IMG/VR virus record: IMGVR_UViG_2636415906_000001
Direction: 5' to 3' (one strand)
Source of the DNA: a virus
Taxonomy: Duplodnaviria; Heunggongvirae; Uroviricota; Caudoviricetes
Length of the DNA stretch: 18,744 nucleotides
The position numbers were made by a program, and so were the translations under genes. The notes below the pieces were generated by a model. The model saw only the letters and a program-made list of their open reading frames with translations. It was not told the origin of the DNA and made no database searches. Positions 1,465 to 18,744 of this stretch are shown piece after piece (positions within the stretch are counted from its first letter, which is position 1; the number at the start of each line of letters is the position of its first letter).

Positions 1465-1752
1465 TTACTGTCTCTGGCAATCTTTATCGCGATAACGCCT
1501 GAAGTACCCTCTCGCTTCCTCATCCATACCAAGAGCCGAATGAGTTCGCTTAACTGCCTGTCTTAAATCTCCGAATCTGTCTGTAGTTGCTGGTGGGCGT
1601 GCCGCCTTACGGATACATTCAGAGCGCCTGTTTGCTGCATGTTCACGTTCTTTATCGCCATTTGCCAGCATCATGACTTCTGCCCATCGTGCGGCAGCTC
1701 TCCGGTATAGCCCTTTTGACTCCAGCTCTTCAGCTTTCCTGTCCCTTATCAT
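1465..1752 (-). CDS. PerC-family transcriptional activator-like protein (95 aa)
   Basis: The motif AEELESKGLYRRAAARWAEVM resembles the conserved PerC-family core (AExLExxGL(W/Y)RRAAxRW) common in P4-like and prophage islands. Basic small protein. Family assignment is from memory. Confidence 0.55.
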   Translation of the reverse strand: MIRDRKAEELESKGLYRRAAARWAEVMMLANGDKEREHAANRRSECIRKAARPPATTDRFGDLRQAVKRTHSALGMDEEARGYFRRYRDKDCQRQ

Positions 1753-2468: not shown

Positions 2469-3431
2469 TTATTCAATATCAAATAAATGCCTTGGGAAAC
2501 CGTTATTATCAGGTAATCCCATGGCTGTCAGGTTACATCCTGGTAAGTTAGGCTTGTTATCTACAAGGTTGGCAACTTTTTTTATCCAGTCAGATCCCGG
2601 TCCAATTTTTTTCACTAAAAACCATAACACAGCGATCATTCCGTACATTCTTTCGTACGCATCATCATTCATATTTAATTGCTCAAAGTACGGCTCATTT
2701 GGCAAAGGCATTAATCTTGGTTCGTTGACCTTGTTCCAGATGCGTGAATGGTGAGCGCACCGATTCCTTAGCACATTCATTGCGCTAAGCCAGTTTTGGA
2801 AGATAGCTCCATTGCCTGCCGCTATCCCTAGCCTAGATAGTATCCTGTTGCGATAGCTGTCTTTTAGCATCGCATAATACTTTGACATTAAGCCGAAGTC
2901 CCATACTTCAATAACCACCCAGAAAGGAAGACCTTCGTACTTGTTTTCATGCCATTTGATAAAGTCTTCGCGACTTTTAGCAATCTCGGCATTATGTTTA
3001 TTTATCCATTCTTCTCTGGCGCTTGGGCGACCATGGGAACGTGGTCTAAAGTGTTTTGGATTTATTAGCGAGTCATCAAGATATGCTAAAGGAGATATCT
3101 TACCAAGCTCATGAGCAATAACTGACCGAACATAAACCTCAATGCGTTCTAACGCATTCATCATCTGCAAACGCAGATTTTTATCGAATAAATAGAGGTC
3201 ATATACTGCGCGAAAATTAGTACCTGGACGAACCTGATCGAGTCTGGTTCTAATATTGTCTGTTGTTATATGGGGGATTCGGCAGGGGTACCAAAAGCCT
3301 GATAATCGGTAGTAGCCTACTTGTGAGATTTTCTTGATAGCATGTTCGCGATCTGGCACATCCATACCCCGAGACAGCAATAAATCGACAAGTTCATCAT
3401 ATTCTTTATGAACCTTAACCGGAACAGCCAT
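2469..3431 (-). CDS. Abortive-infection protein, Abi_2 family (AbiD/AbiF/AbiD1-like), 320 aa
   Basis: Abi_2 hallmarks as I recall them: N-terminal EYDELVDLLLSRGM...GYYRLSGFW and the central motif LRNRCAHHSRIWN. The gene is visibly AT-rich compared with the core operon. Confidence 0.85.
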   Translation of the reverse strand: MAVPVKVHKEYDELVDLLLSRGMDVPDREHAIKKISQVGYYRLSGFWYPCRIPHITTDNIRTRLDQVRPGTNFRAVYDLYLFDKNLRLQMMNALERIEVYVRSVIAHELGKISPLAYLDDSLINPKHFRPRSHGRPSAREEWINKHNAEIAKSREDFIKWHENKYEGLPFWVVIEVWDFGLMSKYYAMLKDSYRNRILSRLGIAAGNGAIFQNWLSAMNVLRNRCAHHSRIWNKVNEPRLMPLPNEPYFEQLNMNDDAYERMYGMIAVLWFLVKKIGPGSDWIKKVANLVDNKPNLPGCNLTAMGLPDNNGFPRHLFDIE

Positions 3432-4681: not shown

Positions 4682-6799
4682 CTAGTCATTATCTGGATCA
4701 TTAGATAGCCAAGTAATGATGCCCAGTCTGGCGATGGTCCGTTTTTCCTGTTCAGGAAGAGAGTTAAAAAAACTCTTCCATTGAGGGGAGCGCCTGATAC
4801 GTGAATCAACAATGTGCCCAGGCGCTTTTCCGTGTAGATTTTTTACTGCGCTCTGGAAGGCTGGCGAGGCAATTAATTTATCCGCAGCATCAGCCGCCCC
4901 TGCTCCACCAGCTAATCGAGCTTTACTCGCCAATCTTGCTCCAATATCAGCCCCAGCAATGGCTCCAAGCGATCCAAAATGAGCGCCTACCATCGTGCCT
5001 ATTTTTTGAATGTGTTTTGCTGCTAGTTCGTATGGAGCTGTTACCCGATTAAATCTGTTTACAAACTCATTCAGCTTACCAGTAGATATTTCATGCGCTT
5101 TAGCATTTTTTATTGCTCTGGCAACTTTGTATACATCATATAGTCCGCTCATTGTTTCTTTTGGCAAATGTTCAGCCAAAGTCTTTAGCTGTCCACTGTG
5201 TTGCAAGTTTTGCCACCAATCTGCAAAGCCAGATGGATTAAAGTCGGCCCCACGCTTCCCAGAGGAAAGCATATCTCTTAATGCTGTTCCTACTAGCTCC
5301 CTTCGCAATGTTCTTGATGGAGTATTTTGCATAATCTCACGAAACCCTCTCGCATCACCTTTTGCCATAGATTGAAGAGAATTCGTTACTTTATACGCTA
5401 TATCCCCATTAAGTGTTTTCCCGCGAAGATTTACCATTTGCCTTTCTAAGTTTTTTCTCATAGCTACAAGGCGTTGTGCGACTTCGAAATCTCGCAAGTA
5501 TCCAGTATTGGATAAGACAGATTTTTGGTCTTCAGCTAAAGCTCCATATAGTCTTGATAGCGCTTCTTTATCAGCATCTTTGTATGGCCCCTGCTTTTTA
5601 TTTAGGGCATCACCAACTAAACGCCTTTGCCTGTTTAAATTTGCATACGTTAGGATGCTATCTGGGCCGGGGTTTATTGCTGTAAAAACTCGCTTTTCTA
5701 TTGGGTCAAGATTATCCCACCCTCCTAAATCATCAGCGATTTTTTCCAGCATAGTGCTTGTGTTATTTGCTTCGACTTTTGTTCTTGGTGATAGAGCGGA
5801 ATCAACACGTTTATATAACTGATCACTACGGTTTTTTAGTGCTTCCATTCTACTATTTATCTGATAAATATATTTTTCGCTCATAGCTAACGCATCTGGC
5901 GCACCAGCAACATCATCGATTATCTTGCCAGCACTAGAGGCTAATTCGCTTATTGCTTTATCTTCTTGAGCTTTTAACGCTGATCCTGTCCGTGACTTTA
6001 GGGCTTGCTCTACAGCTTGGTATTGCTCATTTCCTGATAAATGAGAAGGAAGAACTGAATCAACATGAAGCCTATTTGCAGCCTCAACAATTTCTTTCTG
6101 AGGTTTTAGATCTAGCCCTTCAAGCGAAGAGGCAAGATTTGGGTTGCCTTGTGCAGATAACTTACGAATTTTCTCTTCGGCAGGAGTAATCCCCTCAATA
6201 TCTGGAATCGAAGAAACATTCTTCTTGGTTAATTTCCCAGCTATTTTATTAATTGCAGGGCCAGCAAGTTCGGCTACAGGGCCAGCCACAGCGCCAATAG
6301 CAGCGCCGGAAGCAACATCGCTATTTGTTCCATTGGCTACAATAGCCCCTTCTCCAGCACCAAGCCCTGCGGCGGCAGCCAGTCTTGCCGCCCCTTTGGG
6401 AACCTGAGAAATAATCCCACCACCACTAACAAATGGCGCTGCTTGTCCAACGAACTCACCAACATCTTGTGCGGTTGATGGTTTTGCCGCTAACTTCTGC
6501 TGTAGAGACTGAATTGCGGCTTGCTCTTCTGGTGTCATATCCTGAAACAGGCCAACACCTTTACCAACATCCATCAATCCACTGAGAACGCCATACATAA
6601 AACGGTCGAAACCGTTAGCATTATTAACAACATTTTCCTGTCTGGAATTTTCCTCTGGTGAAACCAAAGGTGATTGCTGCTGTTCTGGTTGGGCATCAAG
6701 CACAAAACCATCAGGAAGCTGTGAACTATCAGGAAACTGTGAGTTATCAGGTTGTTCATCGAGCACAAAACCTTCCGGTAAGATTACATTTGCTGCCAT
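4682..6799 (-). CDS. Large hypothetical protein (705 aa): acidic repeat N-terminus, Gly/Ala-rich segment, coiled-coil-like middle; no recognisable enzymatic motif
   Basis: Long uninterrupted ORF with ATG start at 6797-6799, overlapping the upstream 451-aa gene by 16 nt (translational coupling). N-terminus LPEGFVLDEQPDNSQFPDSSQLPDGFVLDAQPEQQQ; AAAAGLGAGEGAIVANG...GAVAGPVAELAGP tract. No signal peptide or Walker motif seen. Confidence 0.8.
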   Translation of the reverse strand: MAANVILPEGFVLDEQPDNSQFPDSSQLPDGFVLDAQPEQQQSPLVSPEENSRQENVVNNANGFDRFMYGVLSGLMDVGKGVGLFQDMTPEEQAAIQSLQQKLAAKPSTAQDVGEFVGQAAPFVSGGGIISQVPKGAARLAAAAGLGAGEGAIVANGTNSDVASGAAIGAVAGPVAELAGPAINKIAGKLTKKNVSSIPDIEGITPAEEKIRKLSAQGNPNLASSLEGLDLKPQKEIVEAANRLHVDSVLPSHLSGNEQYQAVEQALKSRTGSALKAQEDKAISELASSAGKIIDDVAGAPDALAMSEKYIYQINSRMEALKNRSDQLYKRVDSALSPRTKVEANNTSTMLEKIADDLGGWDNLDPIEKRVFTAINPGPDSILTYANLNRQRRLVGDALNKKQGPYKDADKEALSRLYGALAEDQKSVLSNTGYLRDFEVAQRLVAMRKNLERQMVNLRGKTLNGDIAYKVTNSLQSMAKGDARGFREIMQNTPSRTLRRELVGTALRDMLSSGKRGADFNPSGFADWWQNLQHSGQLKTLAEHLPKETMSGLYDVYKVARAIKNAKAHEISTGKLNEFVNRFNRVTAPYELAAKHIQKIGTMVGAHFGSLGAIAGADIGARLASKARLAGGAGAADAADKLIASPAFQSAVKNLHGKAPGHIVDSRIRRSPQWKSFFNSLPEQEKRTIARLGIITWLSNDPDND

Positions 6800-8127
6800 T
6801 TTCCGTTCCTGTAAATGATTTTCTGACCAGTTTTAGGGTTGGTTGCCGTTGCGCCTTCTGATATTCCTCCGGTTGCCGCTTTTGCCTGTCCAGTGCCAGC
6901 CTGTGATGTAGGCTGCCCGGAAACATCGTCAAATAGCTTCGCTTTCCTTCTTTCAAGGCTTTTTCTTAGCCCCTGAGGAATAGTTTCTCCATATGTATCG
7001 AGATACTCGTCAACCTGCTGGTTAAACTGCTGCCCCATAGCATTGGCGTTGATTTTTGCGGCGTTAACAATGTTATCCTTTGCCTCCTGCGACAGGCCGT
7101 TTCCAGCATTAAGCTGGTCTATGTATCCTTTGATTTGTCCCCATATGCCATCAGACCGCATTACCTGAACCTGTTCGCCTTCACGAACGACTGACTGCGG
7201 GTCAAGAGATTTCATGTAGTTGAAGATAATCCCAAGTTGGGCAGCGCCAGTATTTACCTTGCTAAGGGCTTGCAGAGAGTTTGCCGCCGCTCTGACAGAG
7301 TTATAATTTTTGCCAAAATTGGTAATGTCAGAATTTAATCCCTTAATTAAGTCTGCTGACGGCTTACCTTTTTGCCCCAGCTCCATTAGCTTCAATCCCA
7401 TCTCATCTGAGTGAATTTGTGCTCGCTGAGCCCTGTCTAGTTGAGCGTTCTGGATATTTGCCCATCCTCTCGCGTTCTCCATGTCAGCCTGACGCATACT
7501 TTCATCCAGTCGCCCTTGCTCAAGTCGACGACCTTCCATTTGATCTTTGATATCGAAATACTTCTCATGACCGAGAGAAAACAGCGCCAGATTACCTGCG
7601 AAATGCTGGAAGCCCTGCGGGTCATTAACCTGCATTTCAGCAATAGTTTCTGGAGGGATACCTAAACGACGCATCTCCTGCTCATTATCCATCATGAACC
7701 TGCCAAATGCGCCCTGACCAAGCGATGAGGCTACCTGTGCTTTGAGCGCCAGATTGCCATAATCATCCCTTTGAGCATCATCGACATAACTCATCCCTTT
7801 ACGGACTTCCTCAAACTCTTCTGGGAATGCTGTAATAAGATTACGCATCTGCTCCCTGTCACCGGACGCATAAGCATCTGCATAACCTTTCTGGAATGCC
7901 GCTTTACGCTCCTGCTGTTGCTGCTGCTTATAAATATCAGCAACTCCAGCCAGACCACGAAGACCTGTCAGAGCAACGTTATTTGCACCTGATCGAGCCA
8001 GTTCATTGTTTTCGCGGATCAGACCAAGCGTTGCGTTAATGTCGCTTGCCTTTGGCGCATTCTCATTTTGCGTACCGATGCCAGCCAGAAAACCACCAGA
8101 ATTAATACCCTGTTGCCACGTAGCCAT
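6784..8127 (-). CDS. Hypothetical coiled-coil, Gln-rich protein (about 447 aa from ATG 8127; ORF track extends to GTG 8139)
   Basis: Long ORF; the ATG at 8125-8127 overlaps the stop of the upstream 57-aa ORF. QQQQQ run and low-complexity A/Q/N/G-rich sequence. No enzymatic motif recognised. Confidence 0.8.
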   Translation of the reverse strand: MATWQQGINSGGFLAGIGTQNENAPKASDINATLGLIRENNELARSGANNVALTGLRGLAGVADIYKQQQQQERKAAFQKGYADAYASGDREQMRNLITAFPEEFEEVRKGMSYVDDAQRDDYGNLALKAQVASSLGQGAFGRFMMDNEQEMRRLGIPPETIAEMQVNDPQGFQHFAGNLALFSLGHEKYFDIKDQMEGRRLEQGRLDESMRQADMENARGWANIQNAQLDRAQRAQIHSDEMGLKLMELGQKGKPSADLIKGLNSDITNFGKNYNSVRAAANSLQALSKVNTGAAQLGIIFNYMKSLDPQSVVREGEQVQVMRSDGIWGQIKGYIDQLNAGNGLSQEAKDNIVNAAKINANAMGQQFNQQVDEYLDTYGETIPQGLRKSLERRKAKLFDDVSGQPTSQAGTGQAKAATGGISEGATATNPKTGQKIIYRNGKWQQM

Positions 8128-8131
8128 AAAT

Positions 8132-8305
8132 TTACCCACGTCCAGTTAAAGTGTAAGCCAGCGCCTTATCCATTAATCCCCGAGCAATTTCGTGGATCGT
8201 TGGCGCAACTCCTACCTCTGATTTTTTACGCTGCTCCTCCTGAATTTTCTTTATCGCTTCCATTTGCTTCTCACTTATCAATACTGGCTTTACTGAAATA
8301 GCCAT
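8132..8305 (-). CDS. Small protein (57 aa, MAISVKPVLISEKQMEAIKKIQEEQRKKSEVGVAPTIHEIARGLMDKALAYTLTGRG), first gene of the operon; possibly RHH-like
   Basis: Below the ORF-track length cutoff; translated by hand. Strong RBS AAGGGGG 4-5 nt upstream of ATG 8303-8305. The stop overlaps the start of the 451-aa gene. Confidence 0.5.
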   Translation of the reverse strand: MAISVKPVLISEKQMEAIKKIQEEQRKKSEVGVAPTIHEIARGLMDKALAYTLTGRG

Positions 8306-8433: not shown

Positions 8434-8803
8434 CGTTCTGTATGTCAGGTTTTGACAGTTTTTTTATGGACTCTAAAAACTATATTTATGGAGTCGCATT
8501 ACTCTTCACGGCAGGCGCTTTCCAGTTCTGCCCTTGCTTCTGGCTCCATTGGTAATTTGATTCGCGATCAGCTATGCGGATGGTTTGCTGAACAGGCATA
8601 ACAACATCTCAGAGGCTATTTTTTGAACTACGAAAATTTCGTAGTGCTCACCTTCAAAAACGTCACGCCCTTGTACACTGGATTTTACAAAAGTCTCGTA
8701 AAACTCTTTGCTGTTCTGGGCTATGTGCCAAACCGCAGCGAATACCTCCGTCTGCCAGATGAGCAAAACATACCTTATAAAGAAAATCGCTGTTTTTGCT
8801 GTA

Positions 8804-8902
8804 CCACCTGTACCACCATGTCACAAACCCTTGTGTGGCGCGGCCTGCAGGTGGTACAGGTGGGTAAAAATGACCTCTCCCCACCTGTACAGACCTGTAC
8901 CA
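8804..8902. repeat. Cluster 1 of the GGTGGTACAGGT(GG) motif in both orientations
   Basis: Copies read at 8804-8817 (rc), 8850-8863 (fwd), 8881-8892 and 8893-8902 (rc, partial), immediately downstream of the 245-aa gene. Confidence 0.75.
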
Positions 8903-9865: not shown

Positions 9866-9915
9866 TGGTTGTTTCCTCTCAGCCAGCCAGAAGAAATGCG
9901 TTTGTTAATGGTATA

Positions 9916-10012
9916 GGTGGTACAGGTCTGGTATAGGTAAGATATTGACCTGTACCACTATAACGCACTGTTTTTAATACTGAATTAGCAAAGTGGTATA
10001 GGTGGTACAGGT
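9916..10012. repeat. Cluster 2 of the GGTGGTACAGGT motif, between the primase stop and the next gene
   Basis: Copies at 9916-9927 (fwd), 9948-9958 (rc) and 10001-10012 (fwd), plus repeated GGTATAGGT. The same motif as cluster 1, about 1.1 kb away. Confidence 0.75.
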
Positions 10013-10041: not shown

Positions 10042-12393
10042 TTAAAAAACATCATAACCCCCCATACCGATCAGACGGGCAAACGCAGCCTGTAGAACTC
10101 CGACCTCTGGTAGTTCGTAGAACACGCCATTCCCTCGGTCTGGTCTTCCATGCTTCACCAGCCCCATTTGTGCAAGTGATTTACCCAGTAGTGATCTGGC
10201 TGCTGGCTCTTTAAGCTTTTCCCCACGCTCAAGCGACCACGCTACAAATCGACTAACCATATCCTTTGCAAACAAACGGACTTCGCCATTAAACGGAGGT
10301 TCATTGATTAGCTCGCCATAAAGAAACAATTCAACGCCAGACAGCCCCAGCAAGATTTCTTCACGTAAGGCATCGGTCTGTGGCGCTCGTTGAGGGTCAA
10401 AACCTGAGAGATCCACCCCTTTAAGATGCCAAAGCAACTTTGCGGCACCGCCATCATTAAGCCAACTGTACAGCCGATCAAAATACTCCCGACTCTGTGC
10501 TTTTTCAGGAGATGGCTCAAGCACGAGATAGCGACGCTCTCTTATCCCTGCCTGTAATACCTGTGTGCTGTTACTGGCAAATATCAACCGGGCAAAATTC
10601 GGCATTGGTTCAGCATCAATTCCCTTGCGCTCAAGGTTAAACGTCGGTTCGCTAATAATCGCTTTAAGTCTGTCAGCTTCAGACGGCTTGTGGATCGTCA
10701 CTTCGTCAGCAAATACCAGTAGCTTGTTAGCAAGTATTGAATTGAAGCGCCCTGAAATATGTCCCGCCCCGTTAATGTGGGCGGCGTACTGCCCCAGTAT
10801 TTGCAGCAGCGGTTTAACCGTTGTGCCTTTCCCTGTGCCCGGGACAGATTTCATCACGATTGCCACGGACGGTTTTTCATCAGGCTTTTGGATAATGTGC
10901 GCCATCCACTGGATAAGATATTGGTATGCCTCCTCATTACCGGCACAGACAACCTGCAACAGGTGATTAAGGTATACCGTGCAATCTCCTTCAATTGGTT
11001 CCAGTGCCAGCCCCTCATACAGATTAAAAACATCGTCAGGGCATTTGTCTGGTACTGGATAAAATCCTACGCCTCCTGGCTTGTAGTTCTTCCCACTCCA
11101 TGACAGCCACGCCGATCCCGCCAGCTTTCTGGCGACTCTCGGTTTATGATGAAAATAATGCTGAAATTGTGATAAATCCTCGAAAACGTGCGATACACCG
11201 CCGGTTTGAGAAGGCTTTAGCGACACCACCTTGTGTTTCCCGCCGATGGTGACATGCGTAAACGTCCGGTTGATTTCTTCGAGGACAGCAATTTCATCAT
11301 CGCTTAACACCTCGCCAGAACTGATCTCATTCAGCGCCCCGACTGACTGTTTGTGATTTTTCACCTGCGCCCCTTTCCCCCGTGGCTGGTACATCGAATC
11401 TTTAAATGCTGCTGTGGCTGCCGCCAGCCCGTGTTGTTGGTGATAGTCGTTCCAGTCGGCTTTATAGTCAGTCGGTGGCAGAGACACCCAGCCAGCTACG
11501 GAAATAGCGGCCCTCTCTGCGGCATCTTTCCCCGTGTTGATCCCTCCACTTTCGGAGTTTCCTTGCTGGTGATCGTTATCTGCGGCAATGATGATTTGTG
11601 CCTGTGGATATGTTCTGCGCATGACTTCCGCTACTGGCAACAGGTTGCCAGCGTCGATTGCTGCCACTGTCATTGCGTCAGGGCGAATTAAATGGCACGA
11701 CAGGGCGGTAGCCACCCCCTCAGCAATTATGATGCTGTGAGGTCGTTTCTGTGCGTTTATGGCGTGATATGCCCCCCGCTTTGCTGAACCTGTCAGGAGT
11801 CTTTTTTCACCATGTGAGGTAATAGTCTGTGCTGCTGTTACTGCGCCGGATTTATCCACCAGCGCCAGCAACAGAGATCCATCGGGCAACACGGGGAATG
11901 TAAAATCACCTACCCCTTTCGCAACCAGATAATCAGATTTGCCGTTTACAGCCTTTCTGCGCATGTCATCAAACTGACGGGAAAACGTATCCCGTCTTTG
12001 TTGTTCGTCCTTCTCTGCCCTTTTCAGGCGCTCCTGTTCGCGTCGCTGGCGCTCGGTTTCCAGTTGTTCCCGTTTCTGGCTGGTGGCTTCTGGTGTTTCC
12101 GTTGTCCGGTAATCAATACCCAGAACATCAGCGGCAAGAAGCGCCGCCTCTGTTGTGTCGCAGTTATTTACGCGTTTAATTAAATCCAGCCCATCACCAG
12201 CGCCGCACTGATTACAGATGAAGCTACCGCGCCCGTTGTCATCGAACCGGAATCGATCTTTGCCCCCACATGCAGGGCAGGGAGCATGACGGCGCGGAGA
12301 GTCAGGGACATTTATGTTCAGGCAGCCCAGCACATGAGGCCAGTTGTTTTCAGACGCACTGATAACCTGACGGATAAGATCAATGTTTCGCAT
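10042..12393 (-). CDS. P4 alpha-like primase-helicase (zinc-binding N-terminus, TOPRIM primase, C-terminal P-loop NTPase/helicase), 783 aa
   Basis: Cys-rich motif CPACGG...CNQCG near the N-terminus; toprim-like IIIAEGVATALS and AADNDHQ; Walker A VPGTGKGT in the C-terminal half. This is the typical P4-family satellite replication protein architecture. Confidence 0.9.
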   Translation of the reverse strand: MRNIDLIRQVISASENNWPHVLGCLNINVPDSPRRHAPCPACGGKDRFRFDDNGRGSFICNQCGAGDGLDLIKRVNNCDTTEAALLAADVLGIDYRTTETPEATSQKREQLETERQRREQERLKRAEKDEQQRRDTFSRQFDDMRRKAVNGKSDYLVAKGVGDFTFPVLPDGSLLLALVDKSGAVTAAQTITSHGEKRLLTGSAKRGAYHAINAQKRPHSIIIAEGVATALSCHLIRPDAMTVAAIDAGNLLPVAEVMRRTYPQAQIIIAADNDHQQGNSESGGINTGKDAAERAAISVAGWVSLPPTDYKADWNDYHQQHGLAAATAAFKDSMYQPRGKGAQVKNHKQSVGALNEISSGEVLSDDEIAVLEEINRTFTHVTIGGKHKVVSLKPSQTGGVSHVFEDLSQFQHYFHHKPRVARKLAGSAWLSWSGKNYKPGGVGFYPVPDKCPDDVFNLYEGLALEPIEGDCTVYLNHLLQVVCAGNEEAYQYLIQWMAHIIQKPDEKPSVAIVMKSVPGTGKGTTVKPLLQILGQYAAHINGAGHISGRFNSILANKLLVFADEVTIHKPSEADRLKAIISEPTFNLERKGIDAEPMPNFARLIFASNSTQVLQAGIRERRYLVLEPSPEKAQSREYFDRLYSWLNDGGAAKLLWHLKGVDLSGFDPQRAPQTDALREEILLGLSGVELFLYGELINEPPFNGEVRLFAKDMVSRFVAWSLERGEKLKEPAARSLLGKSLAQMGLVKHGRPDRGNGVFYELPEVGVLQAAFARLIGMGGYDVF

Positions 12394-13482: not shown

Positions 13483-13673
13483 TTTTCACCCCCAAGAATT
13501 ACCAGCTCGGCACGGGCATCGTTAACCAAAGATGAGCACGCTTTAATCGCATCCACGACATCAGCAGCGTCCATTTCTTCAGCCGAAAGACTGACAGCAA
13601 CCAGGACATCCGCTGCTTGCTCGATTAATTGAAGTGCGGACGTAAGGCGAGGGGTATTAATTGAGTTATTCAT
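13479..13673 (-). CDS. Hypothetical small acidic protein (about 64 aa from ATG 13673)
   Basis: The internal ATG at 13671-13673 overlaps the stop (13666-13668) of the upstream 342-aa ORF; the ORF track's longer version would overlap that gene. Confidence 0.5.
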   Translation of the reverse strand: MNNSINTPRLTSALQLIEQAADVLVAVSLSAEEMDAADVVDAIKACSSLVNDARAELVILGGEK

Positions 13674-14694
13674 TGGTTGCCCCCGTTTTGCATGGCATTT
13701 GTCCACCTTCCAGCAGGAAATGAACGTCACGAACGGCGAGATCCAATATCGCGAGTAACGCCTTCAGCCTTTCGTCTCGTGAGGGAGAGTTGCTCACCAG
13801 AATGTCGTTAATCACTTCTGTCAGTGTGATGATCTGGCTTGTGCGTTCGAGGGGATCCATATGCACATCGTAGGTTTTAATCATGTGCCACCTCCATGCG
13901 GATACGACCAGCAAAAAAGCAGACGTGATCGCGCACCAGAGAACGGCGAGCATCGCGTTCAGACTCGGCAGCAATATGATGAATTTTGGCGGTAATTGTC
14001 GGGCAATCGCGGCGAACTGCGGCGATAATCCAGATAAATTGCGGTTTTTGGGTAGGGGTAGTAGCCAGCATGTGGCAGCCTCCTTGATTGATGGTTTATA
14101 GCCACCGCCCAAGAGACCAATCTTGCTGGCGGTGGACTGTACGGAGTTGGCCTTACTGGCAATCAAGGAAACCAGCCTACCCGAAGGTAGCCCCATACAG
14201 CCCACCATTGATAAGGTGTGCGTGTGCGCCGATACAAAAAAAGACGCTGGCGCGTCATGTATCGCCTCGATTGTCAGCGGGAGGCCAATCCCGGCACCCG
14301 TTTTATGAGGTGCCTTATAACCATAAACCGTGTTGCCGCATAACGGCAAGCTCTTTTTTATGGACTCCGAAAACTCACTATTGGAAGAACCAGAAGCACA
14401 GTACATCGCGCTCATTTCGTTAACGTCACGCGCATGGACGAAGGTTTTTGTGGAGTCACTACGCGAGAAGAGAAAGCCATCTACGACCAGAAATTCTCTG
14501 GCGCAGCCGCTGACCTTCTCAACGCTAACACCATCGACCGTAATTTCTGACATGGTTAAGGCATCCGCTCCTACCACCAGCAAATGACAAACTTTGCTTG
14601 TATCTGCTGTATTAATGCCTGACTTTGCTGTCATATTGCTGGATTTTGGCGACATACCAGCCAGTGAAAATATCTTCTTCTGGACGGTTAGCAT
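13666..14694 (-). CDS. Hypothetical protein (342 aa); Ser/Thr/Gly-rich N-terminal two-thirds, hydrophobic segment, C-terminal helical tail
   Basis: Long uninterrupted ORF with GGAGG RBS 8 nt upstream of ATG 14694. No family recognised. Composition changes along its length, so a sequencing frameshift or fused domains cannot be excluded. Confidence 0.5.
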
Positions 14695-15708: not shown

Positions 15709-16140
15709 TTAGGCGGCGTTAAACGCGTCCGGGTAGAGTTTCAGAATGTCGGCAATTTCCTGCTGAGAAAGTCCGTTGTGATCATTTATGTTCGCAAGAT
15801 GGTTAACATGAGTGATCACTTTCAGAACATCACCACGGCAGGAGAAACGGTAGCGAAGGTGTGTTCCGATACCATCAGGATTCTTTTCGTCGATACGCTC
15901 CAGAGTGATTCCAAGCTGGCGTTCTAACTCTGTTGCATAGTTACGACCAGAAGACAGACGGCAGTAGCGAAGAATGTCATTTTCTGTCCATCCCTCTATA
16001 CCAGTACGCAGCATATAGACTCGGGCACGATGCTTTTTCGGTGTGCGCTTTGGTGCTTGAAGGGATTTTGTAAGGGGCGTAATATCAGATACGCGAATAT
16101 CTGAATTAGCCGCCTGTAATGGGCGGTTTTTCTTTTCCAT
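15709..16140 (-). CDS. Hypothetical basic protein (143 aa)
   Basis: The ORF start overlaps the alpA stop (ATGA). No family recognised. Confidence 0.6.
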   Translation of the reverse strand: MEKKNRPLQAANSDIRVSDITPLTKSLQAPKRTPKKHRARVYMLRTGIEGWTENDILRYCRLSSGRNYATELERQLGITLERIDEKNPDGIGTHLRYRFSCRGDVLKVITHVNHLANINDHNGLSQQEIADILKLYPDAFNAA

Positions 16141-16358
16141 CAGGCCACCTTCCCGCGGCGTTCTGCCAGCCAGTTATTAATTTCCACCGCATCAAACGCA
16201 GTCACGTTATCTGTTAGCTTCACTGGGCGTGGAAGAGTGCCATTTTTAACCCATCTATCAATAGTAGGCAGTGAAACACCTAGCAATTCCGGCATGCGAA
16301 AGCGACGGATGTATCCAGTTGTTGGGATAGCTGATGATGCTGGCTTGTGTGCTGTCAT
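16140..16358 (-). CDS. alpA: AlpA-family prophage transcriptional regulator / excisionase-like protein (72 aa)
   Basis: IRRFRMPELLGVSLPTIDRWVKNGTLPRPVKLTDNVTAFDAVEINNWL matches the AlpA (Phage_AlpA) HTH pattern. Position between int and the primase operon is typical of P4-like and CP4-57-like elements. Confidence 0.8.
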   Translation of the reverse strand: MTAHKPASSAIPTTGYIRRFRMPELLGVSLPTIDRWVKNGTLPRPVKLTDNVTAFDAVEINNWLAERRGKVA

Positions 16359-16440
16359 ATCTCTAGTAACCTCTCTGATAGCTCATGAAGTTACTTAAAG
16401 TTTAGTGGTTGCCCATACAGTATTTCTATTAAGACTAGAA

Positions 16441-16492
16441 TCTATTGAAAGAAATTATAAATCTATTGAAAAAATACCGATCCACTGAAAGA
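16441..16492. repeat. Three direct repeats (tctattgaaa, tctattgaaa, ccactgaaag) at about 21-bp spacing in the AT-rich region upstream of alpA; candidate operator or arm-type sites
   Basis: Copies start at 16441, 16462 and 16482, in the 470-bp intergenic region between the 216-aa gene and alpA. Confidence 0.5.
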
Positions 16493-16828
16493 TTGCAAAT
16501 GCAGGTGGGATAATTATTTTCTTTATTTTCAATTAGTTACCAGTTTAAAAAATCATTGTTTTATCAAAGAGTTATATCTTTCATCGTCATTCATCATGTT
16601 TTTACATTTCTTTTTATCTTTTATTATTCAATTGGTTGAGTCGGTTTATAATGGCTCATGATGGCTTAAAATGGCTAATGATAGCTGGCGTATCTTTTAG
16701 AGATGGGGTGATTACAGATGAACTAAGCCGAACAGATATAGCAATAGCTAGGCGAGAATTATCTATGCTGGTGGAGATGGGTAAACAGGTAATGCCCCGC
16801 CATTGCTTTGGAGGGGCGTGAAAAGTGA

Positions 16829-17479
16829 TTAGTCGAGATCGTGGACAGCTAATAAAGCCCGTGAGATTTTTTCTAGGAATGTGGCTTTTGCTATTCCTTT
16901 ATGGGATATCCCTTCATCCTTGATTAAGGTTTCTATGTCACGGTATATAGCTGTGCGATTAGGTTTCCCATTTTGGATGTAGGAAGATGAGCCTGATTTT
17001 TTTATCAGCAGATGTACTATCAACCCCATCATTTTCATTGTCCCGTTTTCCTCATCCTGCTTTCTATGCTGCCCACGTCCGCTGCGGTTGGTTTCTTTGA
17101 TGTAGTTTACTAACTGGAGTCCTCCAAGGTTTCGGGCTTTTTCTTCCCAGCCCTTGGTGCCACGCAAATCATCAATCGCTTCTGATATTTTCTGAACAAT
17201 TATTTCTGGTGTATTTGTGTCAATAAATGGGTAAGAAGCTAAGAAAATATCAAGGGCATGGCAAGGCTCATCTTTACTAGTTTTTTCACCTCTGTACACC
17301 TTGATAGCTCTGGCAAGATGAGTTCTGACAAAATCGACATATTCGAAATTTTCCTCAGGCACATCGCTAATGCGCATAGATGGGTTTAGGCCAGCCAAGG
17401 CCACAGCCATTTCATGAGGGGTAATCGATACAGATGAACAAAGCCGTTCGATTGGCGATTTTCTCAAGATGTTGTTCAC
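16829..17479 (-). CDS. Hypothetical protein (216 aa) translationally coupled to the integrase; GTG start
   Basis: GTG at 17479 overlaps the int stop (GTGA) with GGAGG 5-6 nt upstream. AT-rich relative to int. No family recognised. Confidence 0.65.
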   Translation of the reverse strand: MNNILRKSPIERLCSSVSITPHEMAVALAGLNPSMRISDVPEENFEYVDFVRTHLARAIKVYRGEKTSKDEPCHALDIFLASYPFIDTNTPEIIVQKISEAIDDLRGTKGWEEKARNLGGLQLVNYIKETNRSGRGQHRKQDEENGTMKMMGLIVHLLIKKSGSSSYIQNGKPNRTAIYRDIETLIKDEGISHKGIAKATFLEKISRALLAVHDLD

Positions 17480-18744
17480 ATTTGCCTCCGGGCTTTATCG
17501 AATGGCGTTACGTTGTAGTCTTTCCCGCTTTCCAGTGCCACCAGCAGATCTGCCCACTGTGCCAGTGCTGCTTTACGCTCATCAAAATACTGATGACGGT
17601 TATAAATCCCCTCTACGCCCTTAATGCGATGATTGAGGCATCGTTCCGCCACGACAGGATCAACACCCAATGCTGCTAAATGAGTACGTGCGGTGCGTCG
17701 GAAGTCGTGAATCGTGAAATTAGGCACATCCGGCATTTCGGCGCGAACCTTAGCCAGTGCTACGGGTAAAGTGCTTTCCTGAATATGTGGGATCATTCTG
17801 TTTTGCATCTTCCTGGCCGGAAGCACCCATGCGCTATTACATGAAAAGGTGTGTAGCTCTCTCAACCATTCAACGGCTGGGGAAGGTAGAGGTATATCAA
17901 TAGGGTCTCCGTTTTTGCTGCGTTCTTCCGGCAAATGCCATACCGCACCATCTAAATCAAACTCTTCCCATCGTGCGGCGCATAACTCCATCTTACGAAC
18001 GCATAGTGCCAGCAATAGCTTAAATGTCAGTTCGTTCTGGCGGCTGAATCCTTTTGCGGTGCGCATAGCCTCGAATAGCCTGATAAGCTCATCGCGAGTT
18101 AGCCAACGGTCGCGGGAAACCTCTTTACCACCAGCATCAGATACTTCAAACGCTGAACAAGGGTTTATCTCCAGAGCGTGGCGTTTTATCCCATAGTCAA
18201 AGATACGGCGTGTCCAGCGTAATACATCTGTTGCTATCGTTGGTGCTCCTCGGTCAACGATACCTTTTAACATGTCGTCAATGTGACGTGGCTTAACGTC
18301 CTCTACCTTCATATGCCCAATGCAGGGGTTAATATCCTTATCAATTCTCCGGCGAAGGATATCGGGATGTTTCCATCTCGGAAGTATCTGGCGCTCGAAG
18401 TATTCGGAGGCCAGATCTGAAACACGCATGGCGTTTTTCTCAGCCTCCATTTTTGCCAGTGCTTCAGCTTTTCGTTCCTGTTTCTCTGCTGCTACGTCAT
18501 AGCCAAGAGCAACTCTGGCTGACAGCTCTTTTGCTGTTTCTCTGGCTTTTGATAGTGACAGTTCGGAGTAAGAGCCTATAACCATAGCCCGCTGCTTTCC
18601 TGCGAGCTTATAGCGGAATCGCCAGAACGGGACTGTGTAGTTTTTGGGGTAGCAAATATAAAGGCCGTTGCCGTCTGCCTTGCCATCAAATCTGTCTCCC
18701 GCCTTTATCCATGCGCGGATCTGCATATCTGTGAGTTTTGGCAT
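17476..18744 (-). CDS. int: Tyrosine site-specific integrase, P4 family (422 aa); start codon is the last three bases of the window
   Basis: N-terminal arm-binding-like region (GLYICYP...WRFRYKLAGKQRAMVIGSY), catalytic-domain motifs HDFRRTARTHL and LNHRIKGVEGIYNRHQY (R/H-x-x-R and the Tyr nucleophile). Confidence 0.9.
   Translation of the reverse strand: MPKLTDMQIRAWIKAGDRFDGKADGNGLYICYPKNYTVPFWRFRYKLAGKQRAMVIGSYSELSLSKARETAKELSARVALGYDVAAEKQERKAEALAKMEAEKNAMRVSDLASEYFERQILPRWKHPDILRRRIDKDINPCIGHMKVEDVKPRHIDDMLKGIVDRGAPTIATDVLRWTRRIFDYGIKRHALEINPCSAFEVSDAGGKEVSRDRWLTRDELIRLFEAMRTAKGFSRQNELTFKLLLALCVRKMELCAARWEEFDLDGAVWHLPEERSKNGDPIDIPLPSPAVEWLRELHTFSCNSAWVLPARKMQNRMIPHIQESTLPVALAKVRAEMPDVPNFTIHDFRRTARTHLAALGVDPVVAERCLNHRIKGVEGIYNRHQYFDERKAALAQWADLLVALESGKDYNVTPFDKARRQM

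Follow-up and report, generated by a model that had tools for sequence, protein, structure and literature searches.

Accounts of phage satellite excision usually name two players, Int and AlpA. Vis/ORF88 of P4, AlpA of CP4-57, and TorI work with a P4-type tyrosine integrase in excision, and their genes lie near the regulatory region. A possible third, int-coupled protein was raised by work on the PICMI satellites of Vibrio, in which the integrase-overlapping gene was designated iolg (Barcia-Cruz et al. 2024, PMC10803314). In PICMI115, iolg overlaps int by 4 nt (ATGA) and is located between int and alpA; int and iolg behaved as constitutive genes and alpA was phage-induced (PMC10803314). Deletion of iolg in PICMI115 abolished helper-induced excision, packaging, and transfer, and the deletion was complemented only with an int/iolg construct (PMC10803314). 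Hence, the published excision requirement is not fully separated from effects on int. Among the 35 PICMI subfamilies, the gene overlaps int in 21, is contiguous in 4, and is missing in 3, and the overlapping and contiguous genes (iolg and icg) belong to 13 unrelated families with no known function (PMC10803314).

The DNA analysed in this study (the window, 18,744 nucleotides) carries the following genes in this order, all on the minus strand: int (17476–18744), a 216-codon ORF (16829–17479), alpA (16140–16358), and a primase gene (10042–12393). The product of int is a P4-type tyrosine integrase of 422 amino acids, which matched the Pfam families Arm-DNA-bind_3 (9e-20), Phage_int_M (1e-16), and Phage_integrase (7e-17); its equivalent in E. 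coli is annotated as a tyrosine recombinase and adjoins yicC. The first gene of the downstream operon, alpA, is predicted to encode an HTH regulator or excisionase of the AlpA/Vis family (Pfam Phage_AlpA, 6e-6) and matched PHROG 66, which is annotated as excisionase and transcriptional regulator. Further genes in the window encode a 143-aa protein, an AntA-family protein, an Ash-family ORF, the zinc-ribbon/Toprim primase, P22-injectosome-like proteins including a DNA/protein translocase homologue (6784–8139, minus strand), a PerC regulator (1465–1752, minus strand), and an Abi_2 protein of the abortive-infection type (2469–3431, minus strand). In E. coli, yicC and dinD flank the element. This phage satellite resembles the PICI EcCIMP1, for which a P22-like phage serves as the helper (PMC11773190), and the far end of the window with Abi_2, PerC, and the injectosome homologue is similar to EcCIMP1 in content. 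EcCIMP1_002 was considered as the same gene as the 216-codon ORF and was found to be different and much smaller. Unlike the window, the best-matching E. coli genome (L001) has annotated hypothetical proteins and no Abi-like gene on the dinD side, and the Abi_2/PerC region may be variable.

Two RNA genes were detected with Rfam on the minus strand, namely the C4 antisense RNA (14125–14212, 79 bits) and isrK (14237–14313, 65 bits). Both lie inside the ORF of the Ash family protein (13666–14694), the call of which partly overlaps the RNA genes. Since the element carries these RNAs, the satellite seems to use RNA immunity of the P4/P1 type. Furthermore, two clusters of TGGTACAG-type iterons of 8–9 bp in mixed orientation were observed at 9909–10010 and 8799–8902, one directly past the 3' end of the primase gene and the other at a distance of about 1.1 kb. 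This arrangement resembles the ori/crr pair of P4, and the clusters are probably the replication origin elements of the satellite, with the repeats likely serving as primase iterons.

The junction between int and the ORF was then read directly from the sequence. The 3' end of int on the coding strand is CGG AGG CAA ATG TGA, in which the TGA of int (17478–17476) and the GTG of the ORF (17479–17477) have two bases in common, giving a GTGA overlap. A GGAGG is located at 17489–17485, 5 nt ahead of the GTG, and the whole coupling junction is contained in 17476–17489 on the minus strand. This agrees with the preliminary description of the locus, which had placed the GTG inside the stop codon of int with GGAGG just upstream and had called the ORF more AT-rich than int; the GC contents are 42.4% for the ORF and 49.4% for int. 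The co-expression with int that it proposed is also well supported, because the overlapping or abutting junction is kept across lineages sharing only 20–30% protein identity. Such a tight int-ORF junction is far beyond chance. The best explanation is that int and the ORF form an operon, with the ORF as the second cistron, in a phage satellite that is integrated beside yicC.

The ORF protein matched PHROG 30524, annotated as function unknown, over its full length with an E-value of 3e-34 (residues 11–209 against positions 14–213 of the 220 in the profile). No match was found in Pfam, NCBIfam, or PADLOC for the ORF protein or any of the 43 members of the family, and no sequence match was found in the PDB. 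The earlier statement that the protein has no recognisable family accordingly holds for Pfam, NCBIfam, and PADLOC and does not hold for PHROG. The family is small and was seen only in Enterobacterales: a profile search of 1.84 billion representative proteins gave only 35 clusters of homologues, most of them 206–241 aa long and aligned over the whole length. Named members come from Escherichia, Salmonella, Klebsiella, Buttiauxella, Serratia, Yersinia, Pantoea, Erwinia, Providencia, Morganella, and Rouxiella. Two candidates were dismissed as homologues, P0045 being a PPR-repeat protein and P0018 an IS-transposase fusion. The alignment of the homologues begins at residue 1 (M-K/N-x-I-L-R/K-K-S-P-I-E-R-L), in support of the GTG start. 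When the alleles of the ORF were compared, pN was 0.03–0.27 against a pS of 0.60–0.91, with synonymous sites saturated. Judged from these comparisons of sequences, the ORF is a real gene, and purifying selection acts on it. It was found in the same surroundings, from the end of int to the start of alpA, in about 110 complete E. coli genomes; strains AHM8C212RI and PK5 are examples of carriers of the island. Our literature search found no paper naming the protein (WP_001059729), the PICI and capsid-forming PICI papers do not discuss the gene, and neither the term iolg nor the ORF protein was found in the other papers of the library searched.

Structure prediction, which the preliminary description had suggested as a check, gave a confident model and did not bring a known family to light. 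An AlphaFold prediction with 11 close sequences reached a pLDDT of only 63.5, and the 43-sequence alignment was needed to obtain a mean pLDDT of 89.9 and a pTM of 0.60. The model is all-alpha, with nine helices, one small hairpin, and a low-confidence loop at about residues 131–140, and has no structural neighbour among PDB or viral structures. Conserved in the family are T90-P91, L-G-G (118–120), a loop between two long helices with the sequence G-R-G-x-H-R-K-x-D-E, and the C-terminal motif K-P-N-x-S-x-I-Y ... G-L-x-K-S-T-F. The last third of the protein is basic (pI 9.35). We found no hydrophobic or transmembrane segment and no enzymatic motif in the ORF protein, and no catalytic-looking invariant residues stand out in the family. 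None of the 43 members has a significant HTH domain, and the ORF protein showed no homology to a recombination factor, an excisionase, or a DNA-binding fold. We infer that it is a binding or architectural protein, possibly a DNA-binding one.

Subsequently, the position of the gene was compared in about 20 loci of about 10 lineages, in which the homologues are 20–83% identical. In every one of these loci, a full-length homologue follows a P4-type integrase, and in nearly all of them its start overlaps or nearly abuts the stop of int. The 4-nt ATGA/GTGA overlap was observed in the window and in L017, L020, L015, L013, L004, L100, L048, L037, L035, L072, L022, L141, and L142. The overlap is 1 nt (TAATG) in L002, the induced capsid-forming PICI vB_KppS-Ant, and a 1-nt spacer separates the two genes in L003 and L007. 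The exception is L128, in which the ORF script called the start 35 nt past the int stop, an uncertain offset. The order int, ORF, gap, alpA, and primase is kept across satellites of many Enterobacterales genera. The carriers include PICI-like satellites with AntA/Ash, a capsid-forming PICI, P4-like satellites with DUF5375 and Ogr/Delta, and one satellite with P2-type capsid and scaffold genes, and their att sites are at yicC, ssrA/smpB, and der. P0046, a distant relative sharing only the N-terminal motif and the C-terminal module with the family, sits between an integrase gene and an HTH_17 gene with gaps of 95 nt.

In the E. coli satellite L003, located at the ssrA/smpB site, a PD-T7-5 defence gene (6995–8167, minus strand; PADLOC, 2.4e-137) lies between the homologue and alpA, and the homologue is still attached to int. 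The int-alpA interval can therefore also accept defence cargo. Searches for further loci gave 2 loci in the genome scan, 8 true loci among 120 in a degenerate-motif scan of metagenomes, and none in the viral-contig scans. The gene is also present in records labelled Chryseobacterium sp. and Vibrio vulnificus (L019, CACSKA010000004.1, and L141/L142), all of which show the typical enterobacterial context dut-slmA-pyrE-rph-yicC. This context suggests contamination or mislabelling of the records, and no Vibrio homologue with a Vibrio genomic context was recovered among the homologues found.

The divergence of the ORF protein is uncoupled from that of Int in 12 loci compared: the yicC-type integrases are 70–77% identical where the ORF proteins are 20–30% identical. 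ORF identity tracks AlpA (Spearman 0.57) somewhat more than Int (0.40) in these loci, correlations that are descriptive only because the pairs are not independent.

When the window was compared by blastn with sibling islands at the same yicC site (L010, L011, and L012), breakpoints delimited an exchangeable cassette at 16331–17503. The cassette takes in the ORF, the AT-rich gap, and the alpA promoter, together with ~9 codons at the 3' end of int and ~9 codons at the 5' end of alpA. Outside the cassette, int is 98.7–99.4% identical and the downstream genes are about 95% identical. Within it, the sibling islands have unrelated sequence with a gene for either a 321-aa protein (L010, 1859–2824, minus strand) or a 281-aa protein (L011, 1857–2702, minus strand). 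The sibling gene does not overlap its neighbours and is separated from int by 95 nt and from alpA by about 113 nt. The accessions of the two E. coli proteins are WP_001555743.1 and WP_000735991.1. Neither protein has a Pfam domain; the two have in common an N-terminal motif of the type T-I-E-R-A-x-x-L-L and a C-terminal motif R-H-x-x-N-R-E ... Y-P-x-E-C-x-G-K. Distant homology of these proteins to the ORF protein was not supported (hhalign probability about 0.2%). In related PICIs at tRNA-Thr, nothing is annotated in the 427-bp gap between int and alpA. The 321- and 281-aa proteins may be functional analogues of the ORF protein. Either the slot proteins are functional analogues, as the authors of the PICMI study imply, or the partner of the ORF protein is on the alpA side.

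The gap between the ORF and alpA in the window (16359–16828) is 470 bp long, non-coding, and AT-rich, with a GC content of 34% (0.340). In related loci where the homologue directly precedes alpA, the gaps are about 280–655 bp. Three direct repeats (TTTCAATAGAT-like on the alpA strand) with a spacing of ~20 bp were found at 16440–16492, 74–135 nt upstream of the alpA start. The relatives have 3–4 such repeats, of the form TTTCAATRGAW and with the same ~20-bp spacing, 60–135 nt upstream of alpA. They were observed in nearly all loci with the homologue directly before alpA (the window, L002, L004, L007, L013, L015, L017, L020, L030, L100, and L141), including the lineages of 20–30% identity (L002, L004, L007, and L141), and are kept across satellites whose AlpA proteins share only 21–32% identity. 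The repeats are absent from the controls without the ORF (L010–L012, L146/L147, and P4). They are also absent from L003, which has a homologue, and L022 has one repeat only.

A different array of four tandem 10-bp units (ATGGCTNATG) is located at 16643–16686. Tandem arrays with a 10-bp period were also present in relatives, at 6766–6815 of L004, 7125–7178 and 7271–7330 of L002, and 11045–11084 of L072, and resemble the three "ori type 2 repeats" that P4 has upstream of vis. Each lineage has its own unit in these arrays, and even copies of one ORF allele are followed by different units. We rejected the arrays as operators of the ORF protein: the same allele (98.6% identical to P0007) precedes different arrays, and P4 has the equivalent "ori type 2" repeats without the gene. 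Since changes in the array sequence do not follow the ORF allele, the arrays are not assigned to the ORF protein. The gap as a primase-bound replication origin was likewise not supported in the window, where the TGGTACAG iterons cluster outside the gap, and no second cluster of the gap units was found outside it. An Rfam search of the gap gave only a sub-threshold match to a CRISPR direct repeat (16782–16824, plus strand; 21 bits, E 0.075). This match was dismissed as chance; it coincides with a GCCCC...GGGGC hairpin just past the stop of the ORF, which is most likely a weak terminator-like stem.

The locus was compared with the described systems on these grounds. Like iolg, the start of which overlaps the int stop by 1–13 nt and typically by ATGA, the ORF overlaps int (GTGA, 17476–17479). 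Both genes lie between int and alpA on the same strand of a primase-encoding satellite, and both lack known domains. The slot is filled in PICMI by many unrelated families or a contiguous gene or is empty, and the same pattern was seen in the sibling islands here. The two differ in their hosts, which are Vibrionaceae for iolg and Enterobacterales for the ORF, and in their satellites, since the ORF is carried by PICI-like, capsid-forming PICI, and P4-like elements with temperate helpers, unlike the PICMI type. The excision requirement was shown only for iolg of PICMI115. By position alone, the ORF would be the enterobacterial counterpart of iolg; it falls within the positional definition, in new hosts and new types of satellite. 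The feature is real and ordinary, being a member of a recently described positional class.

Other known classes agreed less well. Vis/ORF88, AlpA of CP4-57, and TorI are about 65–90 aa in length with an HTH_17/winged-helix fold, whereas the ORF protein is a 216-aa all-alpha protein with no such match, and it does not have the small size with a basic character and this fold that define an excisionase or RDF. Stl/Rpr of Gram-positive PICIs resembles the ORF in being Int-proximal by the regulatory region, in its high sequence diversity, and in its expression in the quiescent state (PMC6092414). However, Stl has a recognisable HTH and is divergent from the operon it represses, whereas the ORF protein has no HTH match, its gene is co-directional with alpA, and the element has C4-RNA immunity. 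The gop-beta-cII region of P4 and PD-T7-5 in L003 are, like the ORF slot, variable intervals beside int with conserved flanks. Such int-adjacent defence hotspots hold interchangeable cargo, whereas the ORF family keeps a fixed, int-coupled position and is not a recognised defence protein; in PADLOC-DB 2.0 no match at E <= 1 was obtained for the ORF protein, nor did two distant homologues give a match. Compared in this manner, the labels of classical RDF and known defence protein both fail. Among the accessory, defence, and RDF functions offered in the preliminary description, the recombination-linked one gains most from the iolg arrangement, whereas the classical RDF form of it is contradicted by the length of 216 aa, by the lack of an excisionase or winged-helix match, and by the AlpA/Vis-type excisionase-like gene that the element already carries.

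The ORF might instead be non-functional or mis-called, a chance product downstream of int. Only the absence of a known domain or fold speaks for this, and the conservation seen in the sequences already refutes it: the full-length PHROG match, the 35 clusters of homologues with conserved length, the confident model from the 43-sequence alignment, and a pN far below pS leave it extremely improbable. A second explanation concerns the alpA side. The ORF protein, made constitutively with int, could be a DNA-binding regulator of the alpA upstream region, which would bind the TTTCAATRGAW repeats or the AT-rich, P4-ori-like region and set the threshold for helper-induced alpA expression or for replication; in this case, protein and target promoter would be exchanged jointly, as a single module. 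Indeed, the cassette joins the ORF to the entire region upstream of alpA and has its end within alpA, the repeats accompany homologues directly before alpA and are lacking in the controls without the ORF, the divergence of the ORF tracks that of AlpA, and the basic C-terminal third is accompanied by weak HTH-like hints. None of these hints, nor any other DNA-binding domain, reaches significance, however, and the homologues of L003 and L022 occur with no repeats and with one repeat, respectively. The repeats could equally be sites of AlpA auto-activation, as the alpA promoter of EcCICFT073 is activated by AlpA itself (PMC6092414). There is no co-variation between the 10-bp arrays and the ORF allele, and a protein repressor is not needed because the element carries the C4 RNA and isrK, so that P4-type RNA immunity is already there. 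We consider a regulator of alpA unlikely.

Alternatively, the ORF could be accessory cargo that uses the constitutive expression of int and has no role in the satellite cycle, such as an anti-phage or superinfection-exclusion factor that consists of one protein. Defence hotspots are known in satellites (PMC10803314), and the int-alpA interval is prone to swapping, with alternative unrelated genes and with PD-T7-5 in L003. The cassette has a higher AT content than the remainder of the element, and expression in the integrated state suits a host-protective gene. These points are set against the lack of a PADLOC match for the ORF protein or its relatives and of any enzymatic motif or transmembrane segment. 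Unlike typical cargo, moreover, the gene has a constant position and stays coupled to int in satellites that differ in helper and host, and the defence gene of L003 sits beside the homologue and does not replace it. A defence function as such is neither supported nor excluded by these data, and we regard cargo without a role in the satellite cycle as a rather doubtful explanation.

The explanation that we tentatively prefer, while holding it somewhat less probable than its absence, is that the ORF protein is an Int-coupled accessory factor for excision or integration. The ORF protein would be made with Int constitutively and in a fixed proportion while the satellite is integrated, and would act as an accessory component of Int-mediated site-specific recombination. 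When a helper phage switches on AlpA, then Int, AlpA, and the ORF protein would assemble an excisive complex, in which the basic helical region at the C-terminus of the ORF protein and its conserved, flexible GRGxHRK loop would probably make the contacts to DNA. We count for this explanation the GTGA junction with its Shine-Dalgarno sequence; the overlap or abutment, conserved in about 20 loci of about 10 lineages; the partner, which is always a P4-type Int across several att sites and satellite types; the homologue of L003, which stayed on int despite the inserted PD-T7-5; the distant P0046, also between int and an HTH_17 gene; the purifying selection; the conserved basic loop and basic C-terminal third; and, by analogy, the deletion phenotype of iolg in PICMI115. 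Counted against it are the lack of homology to recombination factors, excisionases, or DNA-binding folds, the other relatives with nothing annotated between int and alpA, and the iolg excision requirement, itself not fully separated from int effects. Two observations argue against a strict partnership with Int, namely the sibling islands, which have a 99%-identical Int and an unrelated, non-overlapping gene in the slot, and the divergence of the ORF, which is uncoupled from Int and tracks AlpA more.

A broader form of the accessory explanation seems to us more doubtful still: in enterobacterial satellites, recombination by P4-type integrases may include a third core component that has so far escaped notice, namely the ORF family, with a new all-alpha fold. 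The family would then make up a new class of accessory or directionality factors that work alongside Int and AlpA in recombination, and the unrelated slot proteins, namely the 321- and 281-aa proteins and the IOLG/ICG proteins of PICMI, would be its functional analogues. If the ORF protein instead controls the alpA promoter, the finding would bear on how helper phages switch on Gram-negative satellites. The confident model and the motifs (TP, LGG, GRGxHRKxDE, and the C-terminal KPNxSxIY...GLxKSTF) offer targets for mutation, and since the family occurs in E. coli, where genetics is easy, the question is directly testable in standard systems. Across Enterobacterales, a single conserved family holds the same int-coupled position in satellites of the PICI-like, capsid-forming PICI, and P4-like types.
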